From a virus, in the IMG/VR virus record IMGVR_UViG_3300021431_000015, positions 634-64,633 of that record: DNA of 64,000 bases; one strand, written 5' to 3'. Every line of letters begins with the position of its first letter. Position 1 is the stretch's first letter. Below are positions 4,106-32,486 of the stretch, one piece after another. Made by a program: the position numbers and the translations under genes. The notes beneath the pieces were generated by a model, which saw only the letters and a list, made by a program, of their open reading frames with translations, did not search any database and was not told the DNA's origin.

Positions 4106-4629
4106 GTTCCTTATGTTGGGTACCCGTTTACAACGGTTACATATCAACATGGAAGGAAACAGATTATGGCTACTATCACTTTCAAGAATGGCGCAACTGC
4201 AACTATCAATATGGACGAACTTAAGACCCTGTTGGGGCTTGAGGGTATCGCCACCGAGAACGTATTCGATACTATCGTTATTAGTAAGCCGCTCGATACG
4301 CGCAAGGTTGACAAGGTTGCAAGCGGCGAAAACCGCGAACCTGTCCCCTACGCTAAGTTTGGCAAGCGTGCCAAGGGTATCGCCGACAATGCACGCAAGC
4401 ACGCCCCTAGCGCGGCGTGTGTCATCCAGTACCCCGCCAAGGGCGACAAGGGCAATGGCTGGATTTGGCTGGACAATAACGGTCAATTTGTTGAGGGCTT
4501 GTCCCCCAACTGGAAGTGGTCTAAGCGTCGCAAGATGCACTATTACGACCTTAACCCCAAACCCGCTAAGAAAAGCGGAAACAAGTAGGTATCATCGGGT
4601 ACCCAACACGGGTACCCAACATAAGGAAC
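4106..4629. repeat. single-gene cassette bounded by perfect 20-bp inverted repeats (gttccttatgttgggtaccc ... gggtacccaacataaggaac)
   Basis: IR arms at 4106-4125 and 4610-4629; 12-bp tandem duplication gggtacccaaca next to right arm; direct repeats caccttgaaaa(c/t)cga at about 4019 and 4081. Confidence 0.6.
4166..4588 (+). CDS. hypothetical protein (140 aa) carried inside IR-flanked cassette
   Basis: GGAAGG RBS 9 nt upstream; lower GC than surrounding phage genes. Confidence 0.6.
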   Translation: MATITFKNGATATINMDELKTLLGLEGIATENVFDTIVISKPLDTRKVDKVASGENREPVPYAKFGKRAKGIADNARKHAPSAACVIQYPAKGDKGNGWIWLDNNGQFVEGLSPNWKWSKRRKMHYYDLNPKPAKKSGNK

Positions 4630-17582: not shown

Positions 17583-17813
17583 ATGGTTTTGGAAGCGGTC
17601 ATGCACGCATGGAACGAGGGCAATTCGTTCCGCGTGCGGCTGGGTGATTTCGCCACGGAAAAGGACGCGCAGGACGCCGCGCTCCGCTTCCGCAAGCGAT
17701 TCGCCGACAGCATCGATGCGGTGATTCTCTACAAAGACGAGGAGGAAGTGTATGGCAAGGAAACGGGAGCTCACGGTGGAGCGATGGTCGGAGAATCTCG
17801 CAACGGAGCGTGA
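17583..17813 (+). CDS. hypothetical protein (76 aa); overlaps next gene by about 60 nt
   Basis: GAGGAGGGGAA-ATG. Confidence 0.45.
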   Translation: MVLEAVMHAWNEGNSFRVRLGDFATEKDAQDAALRFRKRFADSIDAVILYKDEEEVYGKETGAHGGAMVGESRNGA

Positions 17814-18645
17814 GCTAATCAGGCAGATGGACGATGCCACCGTCTGGCAGCTCTTGAAGTACCACGTCGATGCGGGGCACGATTTGAAGGACGTGGTGTT
17901 CGAGCAGCAGATGGCGTTGCTCTGGAAGGAATGCGGCATGCAGGTATACGACTTCGACCCGGATTTCACGCAGTCCATCCTGAACGAGAACTGGGTCGAC
18001 TTGCTGCCGGACTGCATAGGCAACAGGCCATACGACTGCTTCTACATGAAGCTGCCCTGCGGCAAGCAGAACGAGGGCGTCGTGGTGTTCGTCGTCGGCA
18101 CCGACCGGATTGACGGCTTCAGGCCGGACTGGTTCCCCGGTGCGCTTGACGCGAAGGGCGTCTACGTCGGCGGCAACGGGGAGGAGCGTACCATCGTCAA
18201 CACGGGTGAGGAGACGCTCTGCCTGTGCTACTTCGCCATATCGAAGACGATTGACCTGATGTTCGACGACACGCCGCTCGAACGATACCCGAACTCGCTG
18301 GTCGCGAACGGCGTGGCCTACCTGTGCTCGCTCAATGCGGACATAACGCCCGTGTACAAGCCGCAGCCCAGTCTCAGGCGCAACAACGCCAAGCGCCGCA
18401 GCAACGCCACATGGTACGATGTCGGGGCCAGGGTCGGCTCCGAACTCAGGGCCTACACGCACGTGAAGTCCGGCCACAAGCCGCATCAGGGCGGCACGGT
18501 CAGGCCGCACATGCGCAGGGCGCATTGGCACCACTTCTGGACTGGCCCAAGGGACGGGGCGCGGAACCTCGTCCTCAAATGGCTCCCGCCGACAATCGTG
18601 GGCGCCGGGAAGCCGGACTCCCCCACTTTGCACAAGGTCGGGTAA
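17752..18645 (+). CDS. hypothetical protein (297 aa) with His/Trp-rich C-terminal motif RAHWHHFWTG
   Basis: GAGGAGGAAGTGT-ATG; no family recognised by eye. Confidence 0.7.
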   Translation: MARKRELTVERWSENLATERELIRQMDDATVWQLLKYHVDAGHDLKDVVFEQQMALLWKECGMQVYDFDPDFTQSILNENWVDLLPDCIGNRPYDCFYMKLPCGKQNEGVVVFVVGTDRIDGFRPDWFPGALDAKGVYVGGNGEERTIVNTGEETLCLCYFAISKTIDLMFDDTPLERYPNSLVANGVAYLCSLNADITPVYKPQPSLRRNNAKRRSNATWYDVGARVGSELRAYTHVKSGHKPHQGGTVRPHMRRAHWHHFWTGPRDGARNLVLKWLPPTIVGAGKPDSPTLHKVG

Positions 18646-18663
18646 TGCTCTACACTCTGGCCC

Positions 18664-19293
18664 ATGGATTACAGGGTGCATGGATTCAGGCATGGGGATT
18701 ATCTAATCCGCAACGTAGACGAGTACCGGCCTTACTGGTCGGAGGTCAGGGACGTGCTCGATTCCATCACCGAATCGCGGATAATCGCCCATTTCCAGGA
18801 TAACTATGAGGGTAGGAAGAAATCCATCTCGCTGTCCCTCAACGCGCTCCTGAAGGAGGAGTTCGTGGCACGTGGATGGAATGCGGAGTCGCAAATCTTC
18901 TCCGAAGCAGAATACGCCGACAACCAGAGCATTTTCAGGCTCGATTTCGCCAAGGGGATAGTCTCCATCGAAGTCGCGTTCAACCACGGCAACGACGCGC
19001 CCTGGAACCTCCTGAAGCCCACCCTGGCAAGCGAGTTGAACCACGTGGAGAAGGCCATCCAGACGGAAATCGGCATCATCATCACCGCCACCGACGAGAT
19101 GAAGGCCAGCGGCGGTTTCGACGCCGCAGTCGGCTCATACGAGAAGTACATCCGCTTCCTGCGCCCCATGGGCATGCTGTTGACCGCCCCGCTCGTGATA
19201 ATCGGGCTCGAAGCCCCGAAGACGTTCCATGTGGAGCATGAATCCCGGAACGGCAAGAAGCTGGGGCATATCGTCCGCGATTTGAACGTTTGA
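18664..19293 (+). CDS. type II restriction endonuclease, BglII/BamHI-like fold (predicted)
   Basis: GIVSIEVAFNHGNDAPWNLLK and EIGIIITATDE align with BglII ..TLVEVQFSNYPFLLNN.. and ..KVAIIITKG.. catalytic core; directly upstream of a C5-MTase. Confidence 0.65.
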   Translation: MDYRVHGFRHGDYLIRNVDEYRPYWSEVRDVLDSITESRIIAHFQDNYEGRKKSISLSLNALLKEEFVARGWNAESQIFSEAEYADNQSIFRLDFAKGIVSIEVAFNHGNDAPWNLLKPTLASELNHVEKAIQTEIGIIITATDEMKASGGFDAAVGSYEKYIRFLRPMGMLLTAPLVIIGLEAPKTFHVEHESRNGKKLGHIVRDLNV

Positions 19294-19349
19294 TCCGAAG
19301 CGGACTATCTGATACCATCGAAAACCGAATAAGACGAAGGGAGTAACGC

Positions 19350-20642
19350 ATGATTCGCGTCGCTGAGATGTTTGCCGGAGTCGGCGGGTTCCGCCTGGGC
19401 CTGGAGGGCTATGGAAAGCCCGGTGACAAGCTCTACAAGCCGCCTGCTGGCAATTTCAAGACCGTCTGGGCCAACCAGTGGGAACCGCCGGGAACTCCGG
19501 CCCGCCAGTTCGCCTGGAAATGCTACGAAAGCCGCTTCGGCGAGGGTTCCTGCGTCAACGAGGACATCGAGAAGGTCTTGGACGACTATGAGGCCGGGAA
19601 ATGCGAGATTCCCGACTTCGATATGCTCGTAGGCGGGTTCCCGTGCCAGGACTACTCAGTTTCCAAGCCAGCTCGCCTTGCGGAAGGCATAGAGGGCAAG
19701 AAGGGCGTGCTGTGGTGGTCAATCCAGCGAATGCTCAGGCTCAAAAGGCCGAAGTACGTCCTCCTGGAGAACGTGGACAGGCTCCTGAAGTCCCCGACCG
19801 GAAAGAGGGGCCGCGATTTCGCAATCATGCTCTCCTGCCTGGCCCAGTTGGGCTATTCAGCCGAATGGCGCGTCATAAACGCCGCAGACTACGGGATGCC
19901 ACAGCGGAGAAGGCGCGTCTATATCTTCGCAAAGCTCGGAGAGCCAATCTCCAACCCAAAAAGCGCGCACAAAGGAGTTTTCGCAAGGCTCATGGCGCCG
20001 CCCTTCGACCCCGAGAACGTGATTCTGCGCAACGGAATCTTCGCAAGGGCCTTCCCTATCACCGATACCGTCGAAATCAGCAGCTTTCCCATCCCGAAAG
20101 ACCCGTATCAGGCTTCTGAGGACTTCGGCGAGCCGAAGGCGTCGCCTTTCGGCACGGCAGGATGCATGTTCGGCTGCAACGTGTGGACCTGCGCCATCCA
20201 ACCGGCCTACGAAGGCTCGAAAACCGTCCTCGGGGACATCCTCGAACCCGATTCCATCGTACCGGAGGAGTTTTTCATCGCCGATGACGCCCTGGAACGT
20301 TGGAAATACCTCAAAGGGGCGAAGAAGGAACCCAGAACGGCCAGGAACGGCTTCGAGTACATGTACTCGGAGGGTCCAGTGGCCTTCCCCGACCCATTGG
20401 ACAAGCCATCGCGCACGATTTTGACCTCGGAGGGCGGGAAATCGCCGTCCAGGATGAAGACCGTCGTGCGTGGAAGCTCTGGAAGACTCCGTAGGCTCGT
20501 CCCCGACGAATTGGACGCCCTTCAGATGTTCCCGAAGGGCTGGACCGAGGGCATGACGGACGGCCATCGGGCGTTCTGCATGGGAAATGCGCTCGTTGTG
20601 GGTATTCCGCACAGGATTGGGGCTGAAGTCGCTCGACTATAG
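19350..20642 (+). CDS. DNA (cytosine-5)-methyltransferase
   Basis: motif I FAGVGGF, motif IV GFPCQDYS, motif VI ENV(DRLL), motif VIII QRRRRVYIF, motif X GNALVVG. Confidence 0.9.
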   Translation: MIRVAEMFAGVGGFRLGLEGYGKPGDKLYKPPAGNFKTVWANQWEPPGTPARQFAWKCYESRFGEGSCVNEDIEKVLDDYEAGKCEIPDFDMLVGGFPCQDYSVSKPARLAEGIEGKKGVLWWSIQRMLRLKRPKYVLLENVDRLLKSPTGKRGRDFAIMLSCLAQLGYSAEWRVINAADYGMPQRRRRVYIFAKLGEPISNPKSAHKGVFARLMAPPFDPENVILRNGIFARAFPITDTVEISSFPIPKDPYQASEDFGEPKASPFGTAGCMFGCNVWTCAIQPAYEGSKTVLGDILEPDSIVPEEFFIADDALERWKYLKGAKKEPRTARNGFEYMYSEGPVAFPDPLDKPSRTILTSEGGKSPSRMKTVVRGSSGRLRRLVPDELDALQMFPKGWTEGMTDGHRAFCMGNALVVGIPHRIGAEVARL

Positions 20643-20896: not shown

Positions 20897-21793
20897 CTAA
20901 TGCGGTATTCCGCAGTAATCCAAGACCTCTCCGATTCCCAGCTTGTCCATGCAATAGCGGTACTGGGCCGGGTAGTCGTCCTTCATCCGCTGGAACCTGT
21001 TCGGCTCGGGCTCCAGCTGCACACCGAACATGCAGAACATGCATCCAGTGCGGTCAAGCCCAGTTGACCAGGTGAAGCCGTAGCCTTCCTTTATCTCGCC
21101 ATAACATGACGCATACTCGATGCCCGTCTGCTTGATGTAGTCGAGCACGTCCTTTTCCGTCCAGAACGCCATCGGCATGGAGATCGGCCTCCGCCCACCG
21201 AAGATGTTGCAGCCATGCCGCATGTACTGCCCGGCTCTCTGGTTGCTCTCGCAGGCCATGGTGCCGACCATGCCCTTGCGGCCGGTCTGGCGCTCGTACC
21301 GCCTGAACGGTTCTTTCTTCATCACGTCGCAACACTTGTCGCTGACCTCGAATGGCGCATCGAGCAACGGCAACCACTTCTTGTTAATGGCGAACCTGCC
21401 ATGAATCCTGGCATTGCGCAGCTTCTCGCTCTTGGTGTGCTTGTATTCGCGTATCCTCTGGGCCTGCTCCTTTGACGGAAACGGGTAACCATGCTCCTGG
21501 ATTACTCTCTTGAAGTTCATCTTTGGCTTCAGCACGGCGTCTGCGTATTTAATGCCCATCTTCCTGACCTCCGGGTATTCCAGCCCCGTATCGCAGAAGA
21601 CGGCGGGGATGTCTGGGTACATCCCCTTCGCCACATGCCTGAGAACCGTAGAGTCCTTGCCGCCGCTGAAGCTAACGTATACGTTTCCATCGAAATGCTC
21701 GTACCAAGCCCGGATTCTGGTCTCGGTCATGCGCACCTTGGCTTCCAACGGCAATTTCTGGCGCTGCTTGAGCGTCTCCCTGGAGACCTCCAT
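20897..21793 (-). CDS. PP-loop ATP pyrophosphatase of the PAPS-reductase/DndC-like phage family
   Basis: SFSGGKDS PP-loop motif near N-terminus; Cys-rich C-terminal half typical of phage PAPS_reduct+DUF3440 proteins. Confidence 0.8.
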   Translation of the reverse strand: MEVSRETLKQRQKLPLEAKVRMTETRIRAWYEHFDGNVYVSFSGGKDSTVLRHVAKGMYPDIPAVFCDTGLEYPEVRKMGIKYADAVLKPKMNFKRVIQEHGYPFPSKEQAQRIREYKHTKSEKLRNARIHGRFAINKKWLPLLDAPFEVSDKCCDVMKKEPFRRYERQTGRKGMVGTMACESNQRAGQYMRHGCNIFGGRRPISMPMAFWTEKDVLDYIKQTGIEYASCYGEIKEGYGFTWSTGLDRTGCMFCMFGVQLEPEPNRFQRMKDDYPAQYRYCMDKLGIGEVLDYCGIPH

Positions 21794-22213
21794 CTATTCC
21801 CCTTGGAAAACAACGTCGCCGAACAGCTTCTTGTAGCGCGACCTCGGGCCGTACAGCTTCTTCATGGCCGCAGCCCAGATGCCCTTCTCCACGTCCGGTT
21901 CGTCGCCGTCGGAGCACCTGACGATGGTCTTGTCCCCGTCATTCCAGATGACGACCGTCACCTTCTTGTCCTCGGAGACGTAGATGCGCTTGGGCTCCGG
22001 GGCTCCCGTCTTGAACACAATCCCGCCATCCGCGCTGATTCTCAAGGCGGTGTCGATTGGCAACGTGGCCTTGACGATACACCCCGCCGGGTACATGCGC
22101 CGCTGGCGGATGCATCTCATGATTTCGGCCATGTCCAAGCCTATGTCTTTCAGCTCGCCCTCGTCCACAGTGAGGATGTTCTTGTTCGTCAGGAAATTGT
22201 TTTCTAGCTGCAT
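21794..22213 (-). CDS. hypothetical protein (139 aa)
   Basis: ATG chosen 15 nt inside ORF because of GGAGG at proper spacing. Confidence 0.5.
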   Translation of the reverse strand: MQLENNFLTNKNILTVDEGELKDIGLDMAEIMRCIRQRRMYPAGCIVKATLPIDTALRISADGGIVFKTGAPEPKRIYVSEDKKVTVVIWNDGDKTIVRCSDGDEPDVEKGIWAAAMKKLYGPRSRYKKLFGDVVFQGE

Positions 22214-22232
22214 GTGGAACCCCTCCAATTTA

Positions 22233-22832
22233 TTACCTCCCCCATTGGGTTGCCATGGCTTCCGCTATTCCCGGAAACGTCCGGCTCCTGTAGATTCTCC
22301 TCAGTTCGTTCTTGATTCCACCGGCGTCATGCCAATCGGGGAAGCTCTTGCCAGTTGTCGTCTCCATGCGCTCTCCAGGAGTGACCACGTTTGTCGGCTC
22401 CAGCTTCGGAAGTCCTTTCAGCCACAGGCATGTCGCCTTCGTAGTCGGTTCTCCAAACATCCACGGCTGGATAATCTGGTCTGGCTTGCGATAGAGGTTC
22501 GACATTATTCCCGGTGGGTTCTCTATTGCCACCTTCGGAACATGATCGAGCGCGGTGAACCCAAGAAATAGGCCGATGCCGGTTTGCTGCCTTCCGTCCC
22601 TGCGCTTCTGCTCGAACCACTTTGCTCCTGAGTTCGCAAGATGCGTGCAAGGAGGAAAGGCGATTACCATATCCCAATCCATCTTTGCTATTTCCAGCGC
22701 ATCACCTTGAATGTGGTATTCGGGATGATTGCCTATCGTCGGCAGCAGGTCGCAGCTATACGCCTCGATGCCACCCCTGCGCAGCCGCCAAGTAACCTCC
22801 TGCGTCATCTCGCAAGCAACGAGCACCCTCAT
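22233..22832 (-). CDS. truncated C5-cytosine-methyltransferase-like protein lacking the SAM-binding Gly motif and the target-recognition domain (about 199 aa)
   Basis: MRVLVACEMTQEV..LRRGGIEAYSCDL aligns to MTase motif I region but FxGxGG is replaced by ACEMTQ; AFPPCTHLANSGAK in place of GFPCQxFSxAG (motif IV, Cys kept); PKVAIENPPG in place of ENV (motif VI); GKSFPDW resembling motif IX; no variable/TRD region. Confidence 0.55.
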   Translation of the reverse strand: MRVLVACEMTQEVTWRLRRGGIEAYSCDLLPTIGNHPEYHIQGDALEIAKMDWDMVIAFPPCTHLANSGAKWFEQKRRDGRQQTGIGLFLGFTALDHVPKVAIENPPGIMSNLYRKPDQIIQPWMFGEPTTKATCLWLKGLPKLEPTNVVTPGERMETTTGKSFPDWHDAGGIKNELRRIYRSRTFPGIAEAMATQWGR

Positions 22833-22854
22833 TCGGCACCGCCTACCATCGTTC

Positions 22855-23100
22855 TCATTTTCGGCTCCTCTCAACACCGTTATTCGCCGCCAGCTCGTCG
22901 GCTTCAGCATCAAGCTCCTCGACCTCGAGCTGCTTGATGCAGAACGCATGGTAGATTTCGTCAACGGCGTGGAAGACCTCGTCATTATGGTGCTCTTCAT
23001 CGAAAAGCAGGTACTCCATCGCCATGTTGAACTCGTCTCTCAGGCTGAGGCTTTCGTATTTGTGGGTCCTGTACCATTCGTCGTACTTGTAATAGGGCAT
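22855..23100 (-). CDS. hypothetical protein (81 aa)
   Basis: GGAGAAG RBS; start moved to internal ATG of longer ORF. Confidence 0.5.
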   Translation of the reverse strand: MPYYKYDEWYRTHKYESLSLRDEFNMAMEYLLFDEEHHNDEVFHAVDEIYHAFCIKQLEVEELDAEADELAANNGVERSRK

Positions 23101-23119
23101 GCCTGCTTCTCCCTTCGTA

Positions 23120-23530
23120 CTACTCTCCTGTGCTGCCAAACCCTGCATCGCCACGCGGGGTGGAGTCCAGCGCGTCAACCAGCTCGAACCCGACGTATTC
23201 AACGGGAATCACCACCAGCTGCGTCACCTTGGAACCGCTCGCCAGCGTGCATGGGACGTCGGAATGGTTGTACAGCTTCGCCACGATAGACCCCGTGTAG
23301 CCCTCGTCGACCACGCCTTCCGACGTGATGCCGTGCTTGACGTTCAGGCCGGACTTGCTCTTGAGCATGCCCACCGTGTTCGGCGGCAATTCCACGTGAA
23401 CCCCGGTGTCGATGACCGCGCTCCCGTGGGCGGGAACCGTCACGTCGACCGGCGTGCGGAGGTCCGCCCCCGCATCGGTCGCGTGCGCACGGGTCGGCAT
23501 ATACGCCCCATAGTCCAGGACTACTCGCAT
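23120..23530 (-). CDS. dut: dUTP diphosphatase (dUTPase)
   Basis: ATDAGADL, GMLKSKSGL, VVDEGYTGS and C-terminal RGDAGFGSTG dUTPase motifs; GGAGGAAGC-ATG. Confidence 0.85.
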   Translation of the reverse strand: MRVVLDYGAYMPTRAHATDAGADLRTPVDVTVPAHGSAVIDTGVHVELPPNTVGMLKSKSGLNVKHGITSEGVVDEGYTGSIVAKLYNHSDVPCTLASGSKVTQLVVIPVEYVGFELVDALDSTPRGDAGFGSTGE

Positions 23531-24587: not shown

Positions 24588-26960
24588 TTAGAAAGGCGCT
24601 CCGTGGACCTTCATGTGTAATTCGCGGTTCTCGGCCTTGAGGCGTGCGTTCTCAGCCGACAGCATTTCGGCCTCGTCGCGCATCGCCACATAGTCTGCGG
24701 CCTTCGCGTCCGCCAGCAGCTTCTCCATCTTGCGGAACGACTCGCGTTGCACGTCGCACACGTGCTGCTTCTCGTCCAGCTTGTCGCGCAGCTCGTCGCG
24801 CTCGGCTTCGAGGTTGTTGACGTAAGCAACAAGGCTCGGGCAATCGGCGGTTCCGCACTTCGGACCCATGCGGTTGAGGAAGTCGCGAGCCCATCCGTTC
24901 TCCGACTTCTCGAACTCAAGCTCATCCCGCAATTCGTCGCGCTCGGCGATCAGCTCGTCAATCTTCGCAATCACCATGCTGGATACATCAGCAGGAACCG
25001 CGTATTCATTGTGTGGATAGAAGCGCCTGTAAATACTTACAGCCTGGTCAATCCAATGAGCACGACCTTCAAGCAACTCGCCGTTACGCTCTTCAAGCTC
25101 CTTTGTTATGCGCCGCAAGTCGTCGCGCTCGGTAGTCATGTCAATCAGCTTGTTCATCAGCTTGTCGCCAGCATTGTTGGCCTTGTCCAGCTCGGCGGTC
25201 AACTCGGCAATGTCATCCTCGTACCTGTCGCGTGACACATACCATGCCTTGTTCAGCACGCCGCGCTCCGCGTCATTCGCGCGTTTACGCTGGGCTTCGA
25301 CTTCGGCTTTCAAATCGTCCACATGGTTTTGCAGCCGCGCCACCTCGCTCTGGCAGAACTCGCATTCGCCGTCGAACTCGCGCCGCGTTATCGCCGCTTG
25401 GCGGTCAAGTAGGTGCATGATGACTGTCGCTAGCACGTGGCCGTCATAGTTCGTGGTCACGATGTCCTCGCGCACATCCAGTCCACGCTCGTAAAGGTAG
25501 TGTTTCTGGGCATCGTTCCTGTAGAAGTCGTATCCCCAGCATATCTCGCGAACGTCCTCTTCGAGCCGTTCCCGGCTGTCGTGTTTGTCAGCTAACTTAT
25601 GCTTTTCGCCAATTGCTATAACTTGCGGCCTGGAATCGTCGGCCAACTTATAGTTTTCGGCGTTTTTTATAACTTGCGGCTCGTAATTCTCGTCCAGCAC
25701 GTTGACCGCGCTGCAATATGGGCAGCGCGGATATGTGCCGTTGACGTGCTCGCATGTCCTGCCGCACTCGCTGCATTCGAGGACGTGGACAGTGAGCCGC
25801 GTGGCGTATAGCTTCGGTTCAGCCGTGTCGAACCGCCTGCATTCGTAGCTCTCGGTTTCCTCCAGCTCGCATGTCCGTTTCGGTGCATCGTCGGCGCGTG
25901 TGTCGCACATGCCCTCGAAGCGCAGCTTCCATTCGTCGCGCTCGGCGCGTACCCGTTCCAGTTCTTCTTCGAGCGCATCGTGGGAGTAGCACCATTCACT
26001 CGATGTGATTGCTTCTTGGCGGTCGAGCCACGTATGCACCCTCGACCGCAGCACGTCGCGCATCTGCTCTGGCAGGTCAACGGCTGAGAACCCCTCGTAT
26101 ACATCGGCTCTCAACCGTTCCCGGCTGTCCGCATCGAAGTCGCGCATATTCACCTTTGCTGCATCGGTTTCGGCTGTTTCGGCGGTTTCCGGTGCAGCGG
26201 ATTTGCTGATTCGTTCATTCAATGCGTCGTTCTCGAATTGCAGGTTATTGCGTTCCCGCTTCACTTTCTCAGCCAATTCGCCGTTGTAGTCGACTCTACG
26301 CGCCAGTTCTTCCCGCTCACGCGCTGCTTCGTCGAGCAAGTCATGAAGCTCTCCAAGCCGCTGGCGGTGTTCCTCCCGGCATTCATTCTTCGTGATGGCC
26401 TCCTGGCGGTCGAGCCAGCGTCTAATCTCTGGCATCGAACCCGGTTCAACTGAATCTGCGAACACCTCATAAAGCGGATTGCCCTGCAAGTCACGTGTAA
26501 GCCAGTCGCATATGTCCGCTTCGAGCCGCTCCCGGCTGTCCGCTTGCGCGTTATCCACGGGGTGTTCAGGCACATCGTCGGCGCGGGTGTTCCAGGCGGC
26601 TATGGCTGATTCCTTGGTGTAATAAGCACCCATCGTATAGCCGCATTCATAGCACCCGGCGACATAGAAGAAACCGTCGCTGACGATTCTCGGCTCGCCG
26701 CCGTCCTCGCAATAATTGCATGGCTTGAGTCCGGGTGTGTTCGGGTCAGGCTCCAGCCCGTCATGTGCGACCTGCTCCTCGACCATGAGGTTCCATGCAT
26801 CGATGGCGCTGGCTTTCGTGCAGAGGGGCGCGGTTCTCATGTGCCGCTCGCACTCGCTGTCGAAGCATTCGGCGTACCAGGTGCCATCCTTGATTATGTT
26901 CGTCAGCACAGGCGGGTACTTGCAATACGGGCAAGCCTTCACGCTTATCGTTTCGCTCAT
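24588..26960 (-). CDS. Lar-like double zinc-ribbon N-terminus fused to a roughly 700-aa coiled-coil protein (Ea22-like)
   Basis: two tandem ACPYCKY..ECFDSECERH.. / CNYCEDGG..CYECGY Lar-family ribbons (..SAIAAWNTRA) followed by long heptad-rich E/R/L segments; GGGAGG RBS. Confidence 0.75.
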   Translation of the reverse strand: MSETISVKACPYCKYPPVLTNIIKDGTWYAECFDSECERHMRTAPLCTKASAIDAWNLMVEEQVAHDGLEPDPNTPGLKPCNYCEDGGEPRIVSDGFFYVAGCYECGYTMGAYYTKESAIAAWNTRADDVPEHPVDNAQADSRERLEADICDWLTRDLQGNPLYEVFADSVEPGSMPEIRRWLDRQEAITKNECREEHRQRLGELHDLLDEAAREREELARRVDYNGELAEKVKRERNNLQFENDALNERISKSAAPETAETAETDAAKVNMRDFDADSRERLRADVYEGFSAVDLPEQMRDVLRSRVHTWLDRQEAITSSEWCYSHDALEEELERVRAERDEWKLRFEGMCDTRADDAPKRTCELEETESYECRRFDTAEPKLYATRLTVHVLECSECGRTCEHVNGTYPRCPYCSAVNVLDENYEPQVIKNAENYKLADDSRPQVIAIGEKHKLADKHDSRERLEEDVREICWGYDFYRNDAQKHYLYERGLDVREDIVTTNYDGHVLATVIMHLLDRQAAITRREFDGECEFCQSEVARLQNHVDDLKAEVEAQRKRANDAERGVLNKAWYVSRDRYEDDIAELTAELDKANNAGDKLMNKLIDMTTERDDLRRITKELEERNGELLEGRAHWIDQAVSIYRRFYPHNEYAVPADVSSMVIAKIDELIAERDELRDELEFEKSENGWARDFLNRMGPKCGTADCPSLVAYVNNLEAERDELRDKLDEKQHVCDVQRESFRKMEKLLADAKAADYVAMRDEAEMLSAENARLKAENRELHMKVHGAPF

Positions 26961-31511: not shown

Positions 31512-32486
31512 TTACTTCGATTTCCCGACGTTACCGACTATCGGTGTAGCGCCCTCCGGCACGACCACGAGGTTGCCCTTCTCGCCGATGGATTCCAGCG
31601 CCTCGATGTAGTGCTGGCTTATGACCTCCGGTGACAGGGACTCGGCCAGAACCTTGTTGGCATCCGCCTCGCCCTTCGCCTCGATTACCTTCGTCTCGGC
31701 CTTGACCTTCGCGGCCTCCTGCTCGTTGAGGGCCTTCTGCTTGGCGATCTCGGCTTCCTGCGCCTCGGAGTAGCGCTTGGTTATGTCGCCCGAATAGCGG
31801 ACGTCCTGGACGCTCACCTGCTCGACATGCAGCCCCATGGACTCCCACTTCTTGGCAAGGGCATCCCTCAAGCCCCCGGTGAACTCGCCACGGTTGGTGA
31901 GCATCGTGATGGTGTCGTACTTCCCGGCCACCTCGCGTGCGGTCGCCCTCACGTCGTTCTGGATGACCGTTGAGGTGAAGTTCTGCTGCGTGCCGTAGTC
32001 GATGTAGAGCTGCGTGGCGGCATCCGGGTCCAGGCTGTAGACCACCTGGAGGTCGATGTCCGCCGACGCGCCGCCCTTGTCGTTGACCGTGACGCAAGAA
32101 CCCTCGGCCTTGCCGCCGTCGTAGGCGTATTCGGCATCGCGGTAGAGGTTGACGAGGTTGTTCCTCACGTCGTAGCGGACTGTCGATTGCCACGGCGCCT
32201 TTGCGTGGAATCCGGCCTCCTCCGTGTATCCCGCGAGCGAGCCGCCCCAGTTCTTCAGCACCACGACCTCTCCAGCATCCTGCGCATAGACCATGGACAG
32301 CACGAGTATCGCGATAGCCAGTCCTCCGGGTATCGACACCCACGCGGGGTTTATCATCCGTCTCTGGTTGTAATAGCGGTCGCCCAGCTCCTCCCGGCGC
32401 TTAGTCTCAGCCAGGTTAGCGGCCTTGATGTAGAAAAATCCAGCGACCGCGACCACGGCCAATATCAGTGAAAAGACAAATGCCAT
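31512..32486 (-). CDS. SPFH/band-7 (stomatin-prohibitin-HflK/C-like) membrane protein
   Basis: N-terminal TM helix then SPFH-like core and long EAKQKALNEQEAAKVKAE coiled-coil tail; GGAGGA RBS. Confidence 0.75.
   Translation of the reverse strand: MAFVFSLILAVVAVAGFFYIKAANLAETKRREELGDRYYNQRRMINPAWVSIPGGLAIAILVLSMVYAQDAGEVVVLKNWGGSLAGYTEEAGFHAKAPWQSTVRYDVRNNLVNLYRDAEYAYDGGKAEGSCVTVNDKGGASADIDLQVVYSLDPDAATQLYIDYGTQQNFTSTVIQNDVRATAREVAGKYDTITMLTNRGEFTGGLRDALAKKWESMGLHVEQVSVQDVRYSGDITKRYSEAQEAEIAKQKALNEQEAAKVKAETKVIEAKGEADANKVLAESLSPEVISQHYIEALESIGEKGNLVVVPEGATPIVGNVGKSK

Follow-up and report, generated by a model that had tools for sequence, protein, structure and literature searches.

A compact C5-cytosine-methyltransferase-fold protein of the PHROG 757 family in a phage early operon

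The locus and its gene calls

The window analysed here is a 64,000-nucleotide stretch of viral DNA (positions 634 to 64,633 of IMG/VR record IMGVR_UViG_3300021431_000015). The locus under study comprises five genes:

20897..21793, minus strand: PAPS-reductase-like PP-loop protein, 298 aa (PF01507 E=3.6e-16; PHROG 424 E=3e-50)
21794..22213, minus strand: orf139, a 139-aa protein between the PAPS-reductase-like and methyltransferase-like genes (gene call)
22233..22832, minus strand: compact C5-cytosine-methyltransferase-fold protein, 199 aa, PHROG 757 family, the subject of this report
22855..23100, minus strand: 81-aa protein without family match (gene call)
23120..23530, minus strand: dUTPase, 136 aa (PF00692 E=2.6e-27; PHROG 135 E=2.1e-44)

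Gene calls agree with the initial annotation on the PP-loop, methyltransferase-like and dUTPase coding sequences, all three at these coordinates and on the minus strand. The 199-aa coding sequence starts at the ATG at 22832 in gene calls on two independent assemblies; an extended ORF of 255 aa, reaching to 23000, was rejected because the methionine of MRVLVACE is where homologues begin, and 22832 is the start picked by gene callers. The dUTPase domain is full-length, with PF00692 profile positions 4-129 of 129 on residues 10-135. Neither orf139 nor the 81-aa protein has any match in Pfam, PHROG, NCBIfam or PADLOC, and the latter also has no homologue in 163 related loci. Weak homologues of orf139 lie upstream of the methyltransferase-like gene in one related locus (L173) and downstream of it in another (L192). 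A separate C5-methyltransferase (C5-MTase) at 19350..20642 (PF00145 E=2.5e-57) adjoins a BglII-like endonuclease, and the methyltransferase-like gene is, as originally stated, distinct from this canonical restriction-modification methylase of the phage. The 3-kb region had no megablast match among phage genomes. Throughout, residue conservation is counted over 79 homologues, motif patterns and lengths over 270 homologues, and neighbourhoods over 163 loci (80 viral and 83 genomic).

Family membership, fold and motifs

The 199-aa protein is a typical representative of a very large protein family, most members of which are carried by phages and prophages. The PHROG 757 ‘DNA methyltransferase’ profile matches residues 1-198 with profile positions 15-219 of 247 (E=1.5e-58, 198.8 bits), and the family extends to more than 8000 matches, all of about 200 aa, forming 4525 clusters at 50% identity, with members in 1109 phage records and across many bacterial phyla; among viral contigs, 582 of 600 candidate stretches were confirmed as relatives. 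Identity to annotated phage proteins of PHROG 757, for example those of Desulfofustis phage LS06-2018-MD01 (WBK39767.1), Rhizobium phage Pasto and Arthrobacter phage Anjali (gp1), is 40-56%, and these proteins are of equal length, share the PPCT, ENP, K-x-T-x-LW and RSxTF elements and stand alone in early or replication regions. Nothing essential sets the present copy apart from them, its CEMTQ loop differing from the prevailing CE-x-S-G/Q with a T for S as in 6/79 homologues. More distant is bas11_0049 of Escherichia phage JohannLBurckhardt; the coliphage branch has about 30% identity over residues 41-193 and retains an FxGxG-like MFDGSGY loop.

The 270 homologues have a median length of 206 aa, all are about 200 aa long, and none carries FxGxG at the motif I position or a target-recognition domain (TRD). 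Since the family is uniformly of this size, the 199-aa copy is not a decayed fragment. Absence of the C5-MTase fold, or homologues with an intact FxGxGG motif and TRD, had been named as outcomes that would overturn the initial annotation; neither applies, because the compact family shares the fold and lacks both features. Longer homologues (266-468 aa) were searched for fused domains and yielded no Pfam domain. The family already carries the putative name ‘DNA methyltransferase / Dcm-like’, which in the papers searched derives from homology alone: literature on TRD-less or minimal C5-methyltransferases, phage Dcm-like enzymes and phage PAPS reductases contained no experimental characterisation of any member and the literature searched no experimental report of methylation activity, and papers on Thanatos, S144, KL1/AH2 and Danish wastewater phages had no bearing on the family.

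The protein has a C5-cytosine-methyltransferase fold, that is, a class I methyltransferase fold with C5-MTase topology, together with the catalytic Cys and Glu, which bears out the fold originally proposed. In profile-profile comparison with hhalign, the family profile gave a local match to a 57-sequence alignment of C5-methyltransferases from viral contigs that is weak and covers motifs III-VI only (E=0.003) and yet recovers the correct motif alignment; in global mode, motifs I-VI of the same alignment were aligned, and single sequences (M.HhaI and the window's own C5-MTase) produced only meaningless short matches. The protein itself has no sequence match in Pfam, NCBIfam, PADLOC or the PDB, the last searched with both the single sequence and the family profile; PF00145 gives no match at E<=1 and remains below the Pfam gathering threshold, and the PADLOC models MTase_II, DrmMII, DruM and oMTase do not match. 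PF00145 is the commonest weak Pfam match among the family members (4/79, best E=0.0017). Sister compact clades with the common ENP/K-x-T-x-LW core retain FxGxG (MFDGSGY; DLFSGKEGW), and one such FxGxG-bearing clade passes the PF00145 gathering score with 29.1 bits. The elements recognised by alignment and in the structure model are the following:

22800..22814, minus strand: CEMTQ loop, residues 7-11, after strand 1, in place of motif I (FxGxG); C7-Q11 on M.HhaI F18-G22 (hhalign)
22749..22757, minus strand: SCD, residues 26-28, end of strand 2 (motif II); D28 aligned with the SAM-ribose-binding Glu40 of M.HhaI
22698..22706, minus strand: GDA, residues 43-45, on M.HhaI motif III G59-D60-I61 (adenine contact) in both hhalign runs
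22644..22655, minus strand: PPCT, residues 60-63, motif IV with putative nucleophile Cys62, on M.HhaI P80-C81-Q82 (hhalign)
22515..22523, minus strand: ENP, residues 104-106, motif VI, on M.HhaI E119-N120-V121, Glu104 being the equivalent of Glu119
22422..22454, minus strand: GEPTTKATCLW, residues 127-137, motif VIII-like, with K-x-T replacing R-x-R; putatively equivalent to QxRxR by position
22302..22400, minus strand: variable insert with a small beta-hairpin, residues 145-177, the sole candidate target-recognition element (alignment and model)
22242..22289, minus strand: C-terminal element and final helix, residues 182-197, RSRTFPGIAEAMATQW, at the position of motifs IX/X, without the GN dipeptide

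The catalytic elements are strictly conserved. PPCT and ENP are both present as first described: P61 and C62 occur in 79/79 homologues, and PPCT in 255 of the 264 regex matches among the 270, so the conservation check proposed for the Cys gives an invariant residue; in ENP, E104 is equally invariant, N105 is found in 78/79 and P106 in 77/79, the third residue being Pro versus Val. The motif I loop reads C (77/79)-E (78/79)-x-S (73) or T (6)-G (43) or Q (34) across the family, and FxGxG occupies the motif I position in 0/270 homologues, regex matches upstream of PPC being spurious and located away from it. The reported absence of FxGxGG thus holds family-wide. The accompanying claim of ‘no obvious SAM site’ was overstated, as D28 (79/79, like S26) and D44 (70/79, followed by V, A or I) align with E40 and D60 of M.HhaI, so that the motif II acidic residue and the motif III Asp, which make the adenosine contacts, are present by alignment as putative SAM contacts. 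Judging from the cofactor contacts of M.HhaI and CmoX (PMC12783734), D28 would contact the SAM ribose. A metal site formed by C7, C27, H40 and E8/D28 in place of the SAM pocket was considered and discarded, because C27 is V, A or N in 6/79 homologues, 5 of which retain C7, and because H40 is also found in a sister clade with canonical FxGxG.

In the C-terminal half, the motif VIII-like element is marked by G127 and K132 (both 79/79), T134 (77/79) and W137 (78/79), and its K-x-T-x-LW is also found in sister compact clades. The C-terminal consensus is R182-S-x-T-F-P-G-I-A-x-A-M-A-x-Q-W (R182 76/79, T185 75/79, G188 76/79, A190 78/79, A192 79/79, Q196 76/79, W197 74/79), with the final helix spanning residues 187-198 in the structure model. 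Neither Q-x-R-x-R of motif VIII nor GN of motif X is found; K132-x-T134, and R-S-x-T-F-P-G before the last helix, stand at what by position would be their equivalents. A TRD between motifs VIII and IX is likewise missing, as claimed before: the 33-residue insert is all that is found here, and in the family the motif VIII-like element and RSxTF are a median of 45 aa apart (5-95% range 32-52). The insert spreads over 106 alignment columns, is mostly non-conserved and has the lowest pLDDT of the model (80-83). The ‘motif IX-like GKSFPDW’ of the initial annotation (residues 161-167; 22332..22352) falls inside this most variable, gap-rich and lowest-pLDDT part and does not hold up as a motif, only G161 (67/79) and K/R162 being semi-conserved and F164, P165 and D166 not conserved.

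In comparison with canonical type II C5-methyltransferases (PF00145; M.HhaI, M.HaeIII), the protein is about 130 residues shorter and below the Pfam threshold, the TRD of about 100 aa is replaced by an insert of 32-52 aa, FxGxG is replaced by C-E-x-S-G/Q, Q-x-R-x-R by x-x-K-x-T, ENV by ENP and PCQ by PCT, and GN is missing. Several of these differences count against a methyltransferase reading, namely the loss of the FxGxG glycines (both in the 199-aa protein, at least the first across the whole family), the change from R-x-R to K-x-T, the unidentifiable GN of motif X and the absence, in the structure model, of the helix between strands 5 and 6 of M.HhaI; the missing database matches and the weak profile-profile score given above count against it as well. 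The catalytic domains of DNMT3A and DNMT3B, at 12-17% sequence identity, differ in retaining FxGxG, R-x-R and GN and in acting as oligomers with partner domains.

Gene neighbourhood

The PP-loop, methyltransferase-like and dUTPase genes had been described as a cluster, which is physically real and not conserved. A PAPS reductase lies within 6 kb of the gene in 2/163 related loci (0/80 viral, 2/83 genomic) and a dUTPase in 3/163 (1/80 viral, 2/83 genomic). Three relatives at 71-72% identity, in which prophage settings are seen for the family genes, have neither near the gene, no neighbour family recurs in more than 5/75 loci, and the 80 viral loci contain no SGGKDS-bearing ORF. These observations do not support the three genes as a functional unit, and the flanking PAPS-reductase-like gene and dUTPase are best regarded as co-transcribed neighbours without a conserved functional link. 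As for the PP-loop protein, previously labelled ‘PAPS-reductase/DndC-like’, the first half of the label stands, a PAPS_reduct domain with an SFSGGKDS loop being present. The second half does not: PADLOC returned weak N-terminal PP-loop matches only, to BrxP (2.6e-12, residues 21-94) and SspD (2.8e-8, residues 40-109), with no DndC match, and no DndA/B/D/E or SspA-C partner domains occur among the called neighbour genes.

Cooperation of the three proteins in a single, new pathway of DNA or nucleotide modification is thus very improbable, and largely refuted because co-occurrence is lacking. In its favour, the genes all run in the same direction and either overlap or are separated by 19-22 nt, the order methyltransferase-like, orf139-like, PAPS reductase is seen in one Atopobiaceae locus (L192), and one Lachnospiraceae locus (L181) has a PAPS reductase gene immediately upstream; however, genes in phage early operons are normally packed this tightly. 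In the three close relatives examined, the gene closes the replication module and precedes the terminase, and in the window it is downstream of genes for SSB, a replication initiator and a DnaC-like loader. Lar restriction-alleviation domains recur near the gene. The gene at 22233..22832 is a further copy of an accessory gene that is common in phages, and the clustering that drew notice to it is coincidental.

Proposed function and alternative readings

Our preferred reading, held with a little more confidence than doubt and drawn from sequence comparison, is that of a stand-alone, single-domain orphan enzyme in a phage early operon, probably a SAM-dependent DNA cytosine-5 methyltransferase of short specificity. 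In the proposed model, the enzyme would bind duplex DNA and flip out a cytosine, Cys62 of PPCT would attack C6 and Glu104 of ENP would protonate N3. The methyl donor would be SAM, its ribose and adenine held by the conserved Asp28 and Asp44 and its methionine end by the atypical C-E-x-S-G/Q loop that replaces FxGxG. The variable hairpin of 32-52 residues that follows the motif VIII-like element and precedes the C-terminal helices would be all that is left of the recognition domain, so the enzyme is expected to have a very short or a relaxed specificity. Located at the distal end of the early/replication operon, this orphan modification gene would probably protect phage DNA from host restriction; against this, in the BASEL study phage methyltransferase genes were not linked in any simple way to resistance to restriction (PMC8594841). 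The residual value of the finding lies with the family and not with the locus: proteins of about 200 residues with a C5-methyltransferase fold, whose recognition insert is tiny and whose cofactor loop is not the glycine-rich one, are extremely common in phages. If active, these proteins would rank among the smallest cytosine-modifying enzymes, and their specificity might be relaxed or reach no further than a dinucleotide. They would then help in understanding phage anti-restriction and could serve as a compact module for epigenome editing.

The donor cannot be read off the fold, because a C5-MTase homologue that uses carboxy-SAM exists, the phage DNA cytosine C5-carboxymethyltransferase CmoX (PDB 8yf3; PMC12783734). 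It is unlikely, but conceivable, that the same fold and Cys-C6 chemistry lead to another outcome on DNA cytosine, with another SAM-derived donor (carboxy-SAM, as in CmoX) or none (deamination, aldehyde addition), the rebuilt C-E-x-S-G/Q loop altering cofactor selectivity. The family-wide exchange of motif I for a strictly conserved non-glycine loop with Glu8 (78/79) points that way, as does the absence of the motif X GN together with a conserved Arg182 near the start of the last helix, an Arg being what selects the carboxy group in CmoX (PMC12783734); however, no alignment equates Arg182 with that residue, the conserved adenosine-binding residues are those expected for ordinary SAM, and sister clades have the canonical FxGxG. 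CmoX also differs in its 333 aa, its normal TRD with GC specificity and its co-occurrence with CmoA and an amide ligase, partners that are not found near PHROG 757 genes, and neither these nor a TET/JBP, glycosyltransferase or other recurrent partner adjoins the gene in the 163 loci. The SAM-independent, non-methyl chemistry of the initial annotation was drawn from the missing glycines only, against which stand the conserved motif II and III adenosine determinants and the compact sister clades that retain FxGxG, including the one above the PF00145 cut-off; nothing in the analysis positively supports it. Quite unlikely, in our view, is a broader version in which the PHROG 757 clade is a natural ‘minimal’ C5-pyrimidine-modifying enzyme whose C-E-x-S-G/Q loop, missing GN and change from R-x-R to K-x-T would imply a product other than ordinary 5-methylcytosine. 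It would use another donor or none, or act nearly independently of sequence, and leave a phage DNA mark that has so far been overlooked. Were the enzyme SAM-independent, it would reveal a new DNA mark.

A substrate other than double-stranded DNA, such as tRNA or other RNA (as for DNMT2), single-stranded DNA or free dCMP/dCTP, would explain the small size and the missing TRD, and in Pseudomonas phage PSA11 the homologue is flanked by ThyX/glutaredoxin and ribonucleotide reductase genes, while in the window a dUTPase is near. We consider this improbable, as nucleotide-metabolism neighbours are rare (the dUTPase figure above) and replication or recombination genes are the usual context, the PPCT-x-L-x-x-SG-x-R/K catalytic-loop segment aligns with the DNA-contacting loop of M.HhaI, and the DNA methyltransferases DNMT3B and M.HhaI outscore DNMT2/TRDMT1, the tRNA cytosine-38 enzyme, which itself has about 320-330 aa, a TRD with a CFT motif and canonical motifs I, VIII and X. 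Similarly improbable is a catalytically dead relic that acts by binding, either as a regulatory partner like DNMT3L or as a decoy for host restriction or defence proteins. The lost SAM-loop glycines and altered motifs VIII and X would fit such a role, no methylation phenotype has been reported (context in PMC8594841), and some phage C5-methyltransferases with disrupted motifs VIII-X are inactive in E. coli (PMC8256090). Against it, Cys62, Glu104, Asp28 and Lys132 are invariant in homologues down to about 42% identity, in a family of thousands of clusters, which argues for a working active-site signature and not a scaffold.

Fold, motifs and integrity of the 199-aa protein

Along its full length the 199-aa protein matches PHROG 757 ('DNA methyltransferase'; E=1.5e-58), and searches of Pfam, NCBIfam, PADLOC and PDB sequences with it return no match. 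With 79 diverse homologues as input, AlphaFold2 models it at very high confidence (pLDDT 95.7, pTM 0.91), and the top Foldseek matches in the PDB are exclusively C5-cytosine methyltransferases, namely DNMT3A/3B, M.HaeIII, DNMT1, M.HhaI and DNMT2, all with probability 1.0. The C5-methyltransferase (C5-MTase) fold proposed in the initial annotation is therefore confirmed. The closest solved structures are the catalytic domains of the DNMT3 enzymes, whose recognition domains are, to our knowledge, the smallest among C5-MTases. When the family profile is aligned to a 57-sequence C5-MTase alignment built from viral contigs, the local alignment scores weakly (E=0.003) and spans motifs III-VI; the global one agrees with the fold and pairs the residues listed below with those of M.HhaI (sequence identical to PDB 10mh_A).

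Residues of the 199-aa protein and their M.HhaI counterparts in the global alignment
C7-E8-M9-T10-Q11: F18-A19-G20-L21-G22
D28: E40
G43-D44-A45: G59-D60-I61
P61-C62-T63: P80-C81-Q82
E104-N105-P106: E119-N120-V121

Among 79 sequences with 42-73% identity to the protein, C62, E104, D28, S26, H40, G127 and K132 are invariant, T134 is kept in 77, R182 in 76, and D44 is Asp in 70. The motif I loop reads C(77)-E(78)-x-S(73)/T(6)-G(43)/Q(34). The PPCT and ENP motifs described initially are thus present, with P-C and E-N at the catalytic positions invariant or nearly so, and FxGxGG is missing as described, a family-wide trait and no local defect. The GKSFPDW stretch put forward as motif IX does not hold up: of its residues only G161 and K/R162 are semi-conserved, and it falls within residues 145-177, a variable stretch that occupies 106 alignment columns and shows the lowest pLDDT of the model. 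The conserved C-terminal element is R-S-x-T-F-P-G-I-A-x-A-M-A-x-Q-W. A variable hairpin occupies the position of the target-recognition domain (TRD), the PPCT-x-L-x-x-SG-x-R/K segment aligns with the DNA-contacting catalytic loop of M.HhaI, and conserved basic residues are numerous in the family alignment.

Gene calls on two contigs, one from ENA (67 kb) and one from Logan (9.7 kb), give the identical 199-aa protein. A 255-aa ORF (22233..23000, minus strand) with a Ser/Arg-rich 56-aa N-terminal extension, unsupported by homologues or gene callers, was rejected because homologues start at the same MRVLVACE methionine and an AGG-rich stretch lies upstream of the ATG.

A large and uniform family

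A word-index search gives at least 8000 matches, the listed proteins being 193-226 aa long, and an exhaustive search puts the number of representative clusters at 4525 for E<=1e-3 and at 453 for E<=1e-30. Homologues have a median length of 206 aa (5-95%: 183-253; 270 sequences), and RSxTF follows the motif VIII-like element after a median of 45 aa. None of these 270 carries FxGxG at the motif I position or a TRD, so the suggestion that the window copy might be a decayed relative of intact enzymes fails; from its sequence, the protein is judged to be no pseudogene but a member of a very large and uniform family. By tblastn, the family occurs in 1109 phage records, whose matching features carry the label 'DNA methyltransferase' or 'Dcm-like C5 cytosine methyltransferase' or are listed as hypothetical proteins. 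Bacterial genomes with family members come from Actinomycetota, Bacillota, Bacteroidota, Pseudomonadota and CPR bacteria, and a small number of archaeal MAG contigs also carry one; the relatives nearest to the window protein (66-72% identity) are in Eggerthellaceae and Atopobiaceae genomes.

The protein has all tested features of PHROG 757. With canonical PF00145 enzymes it shares the fold and motifs II, III, IV and VI, but it is without motifs I, VIII and X and the TRD and scores below the Pfam threshold; judging from sequence, it probably works like these enzymes while falling short of several of their defining features. Databases and phage annotations already list proteins of this kind, one example being an HHpred-based annotation in Pectobacterium phage CB7 (PMC7344957), and the window locus therefore belongs to a known kind. 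Its interest lies in the predicted chemistry of the family and in nothing specific to this locus. In two phage proteins of 1126 and 1397 aa (BFVD A0A6J5NPY6_2 and A0A6J5SE15_1), one of them annotated Helicase/UvrB N-terminal, this same compact methyltransferase-like domain forms one segment (23-26% identity, TM 0.67-0.71), an architecture reminiscent of phages' large polyvalent anti-restriction proteins.

Genomic setting

The window comes from a tailed phage or prophage, has a G+C content of ~60% and encodes a large terminase, a tape-measure protein, SSB, a replication initiator and a DnaC-like loader. A single long, tightly packed early operon runs on the minus strand from ~35000 down to 20676. 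At its distal end lie, in order, a Lar-domain protein (790 aa), small ORFs, orf127, dUTPase, orf81, the 199-aa protein, orf139, the PAPS-reductase-like protein and orf70, with gaps of 19-22 nt or overlapping genes. A type II restriction-modification (R-M) pair is convergent to this operon.

Principal features of the locus
18664..19293, plus strand, BglII-like endonuclease of the R-M pair (PF09195, E=5e-8)
19350..20642, plus strand, 430-aa C5-methyltransferase of the R-M pair (PF00145, E=2.5e-57; PADLOC MTase_II, E=4e-159)
20897..21793, minus strand, PAPS-reductase-like protein (PAPS_reduct, E=3.6e-16)
22233..22832, minus strand, 199-aa protein (PHROG 757)
23120..23530, minus strand, dUTPase (E=2.6e-27)

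The identities assigned initially to the PAPS-reductase-like and dUTPase neighbours stand; the functional cluster they were proposed to form with the methyltransferase-like gene appears incidental. For 80 viral homologues (43-60% identity), a phmmer search of the 6 kb on either side finds PAPS reductase at none and dUTPase at one, and no SGGKDS-loop ORF was found there. Across the same span at 83 genomic loci each occurs twice, giving 2/163 and 3/163 overall, and three Coriobacteriia-prophage relatives (71-72% identity) have neither. An obligate functional link of the 199-aa protein to either neighbour is thus almost certainly absent. The similarity of the PAPS-reductase-like protein to BrxP and SspD is confined to the PP-loop region, PADLOC returned no DndC match for it, and we know of no established function for PHROG 424, the phage PAPS-reductase family. 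The two PAPS reductase loci are a Lachnospiraceae MAG (L181:4713-5822), with the gene just upstream of the methyltransferase-like gene, and an Atopobiaceae MAG (L192:7332-9241), with an orf139-like and PAPS-reductase-like pair downstream, as in window 20897..22213 (minus strand).

When three genes per side were clustered at 75 loci, no neighbour family occurred in more than 5; recurrent neighbours, judged by eye, resemble replicative helicase, primase and other early-region proteins. In those three prophage relatives the gene ends the replication/recombination module, shortly upstream of terminase. Lar restriction-alleviation domains are often close to the gene in relatives, which hints at an anti-restriction neighbourhood. 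Small Lar-domain genes lie 0-5 genes downstream at related loci L168/L169 and L170/L171, and the 790-aa window protein (24588..26960, minus strand), Glu/Arg-rich and probably coiled-coil, carries such a domain (PF14354, E=1.9e-8). The window also encodes an SPFH/Band-7 protein with an N-terminal hydrophobic segment in the early region (31512..32486, minus strand; PF01145, E=1.9e-28) and, immediately upstream of the R-M pair (region 17752..20642, plus strand), a 297-aa protein with a precomputed AcrVA2-like Pfam match. In Pseudomonas phage PSA11 (MZ089731.1 26235..26795), a homologue of 40% identity, recorded as a 'hypothetical protein', lies within a nucleotide-metabolism block (ThyX, PhoH-like ATPase, glutaredoxin, ribonucleotide reductase), with amidoligase and ATP-grasp genes upstream.

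Likely activity

The 199-aa protein is very probably an active enzyme of the C5-MTase fold acting on a nucleic-acid pyrimidine. As to its chemistry, for which a non-methylating reaction on cytosine had been proposed, we lean towards an orphan SAM-dependent DNA cytosine-5 methyltransferase with a minimal recognition module: SAM would still be the donor, DNA cytosine the substrate, and specificity may be short or relaxed. Strand 2 ends in an invariant acidic residue, and strand 3 is followed by an Asp that is largely conserved; the equivalent positions hold the SAM ribose and adenine in M.HhaI and in the phage C5-MTase homologue CmoX (PMC12783734). Two sister clades share the compact core with ENP and K-x-T-x-LW, supporting a probable SAM-using ancestry; their members include coliphage Bas11_0049, with an MFDGSGY loop, and a 236-aa viral protein (L003:4494-5204) with DLFSGKEGW, SPPCQSFS, IENP and KPTDLW, above the PF00145 cut-off at 29 bits. 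Against SAM-dependent methylation stand the loss of both FxGxG glycines, K-x-T in place of R-x-R, the absence of GN, and CmoX itself, proof that an enzyme of this fold can take carboxy-SAM as its donor (PMC12783734). The literature searched contains no biochemical characterisation of family members.

On the 194-kb viral contig L003, the 236-aa compact C5-MTase lies two genes upstream of a PHROG-757-type gene and a canonical C5-MTase ~3 kb downstream, placing three cytosine-methyltransferase-fold genes within ~6.5 kb.
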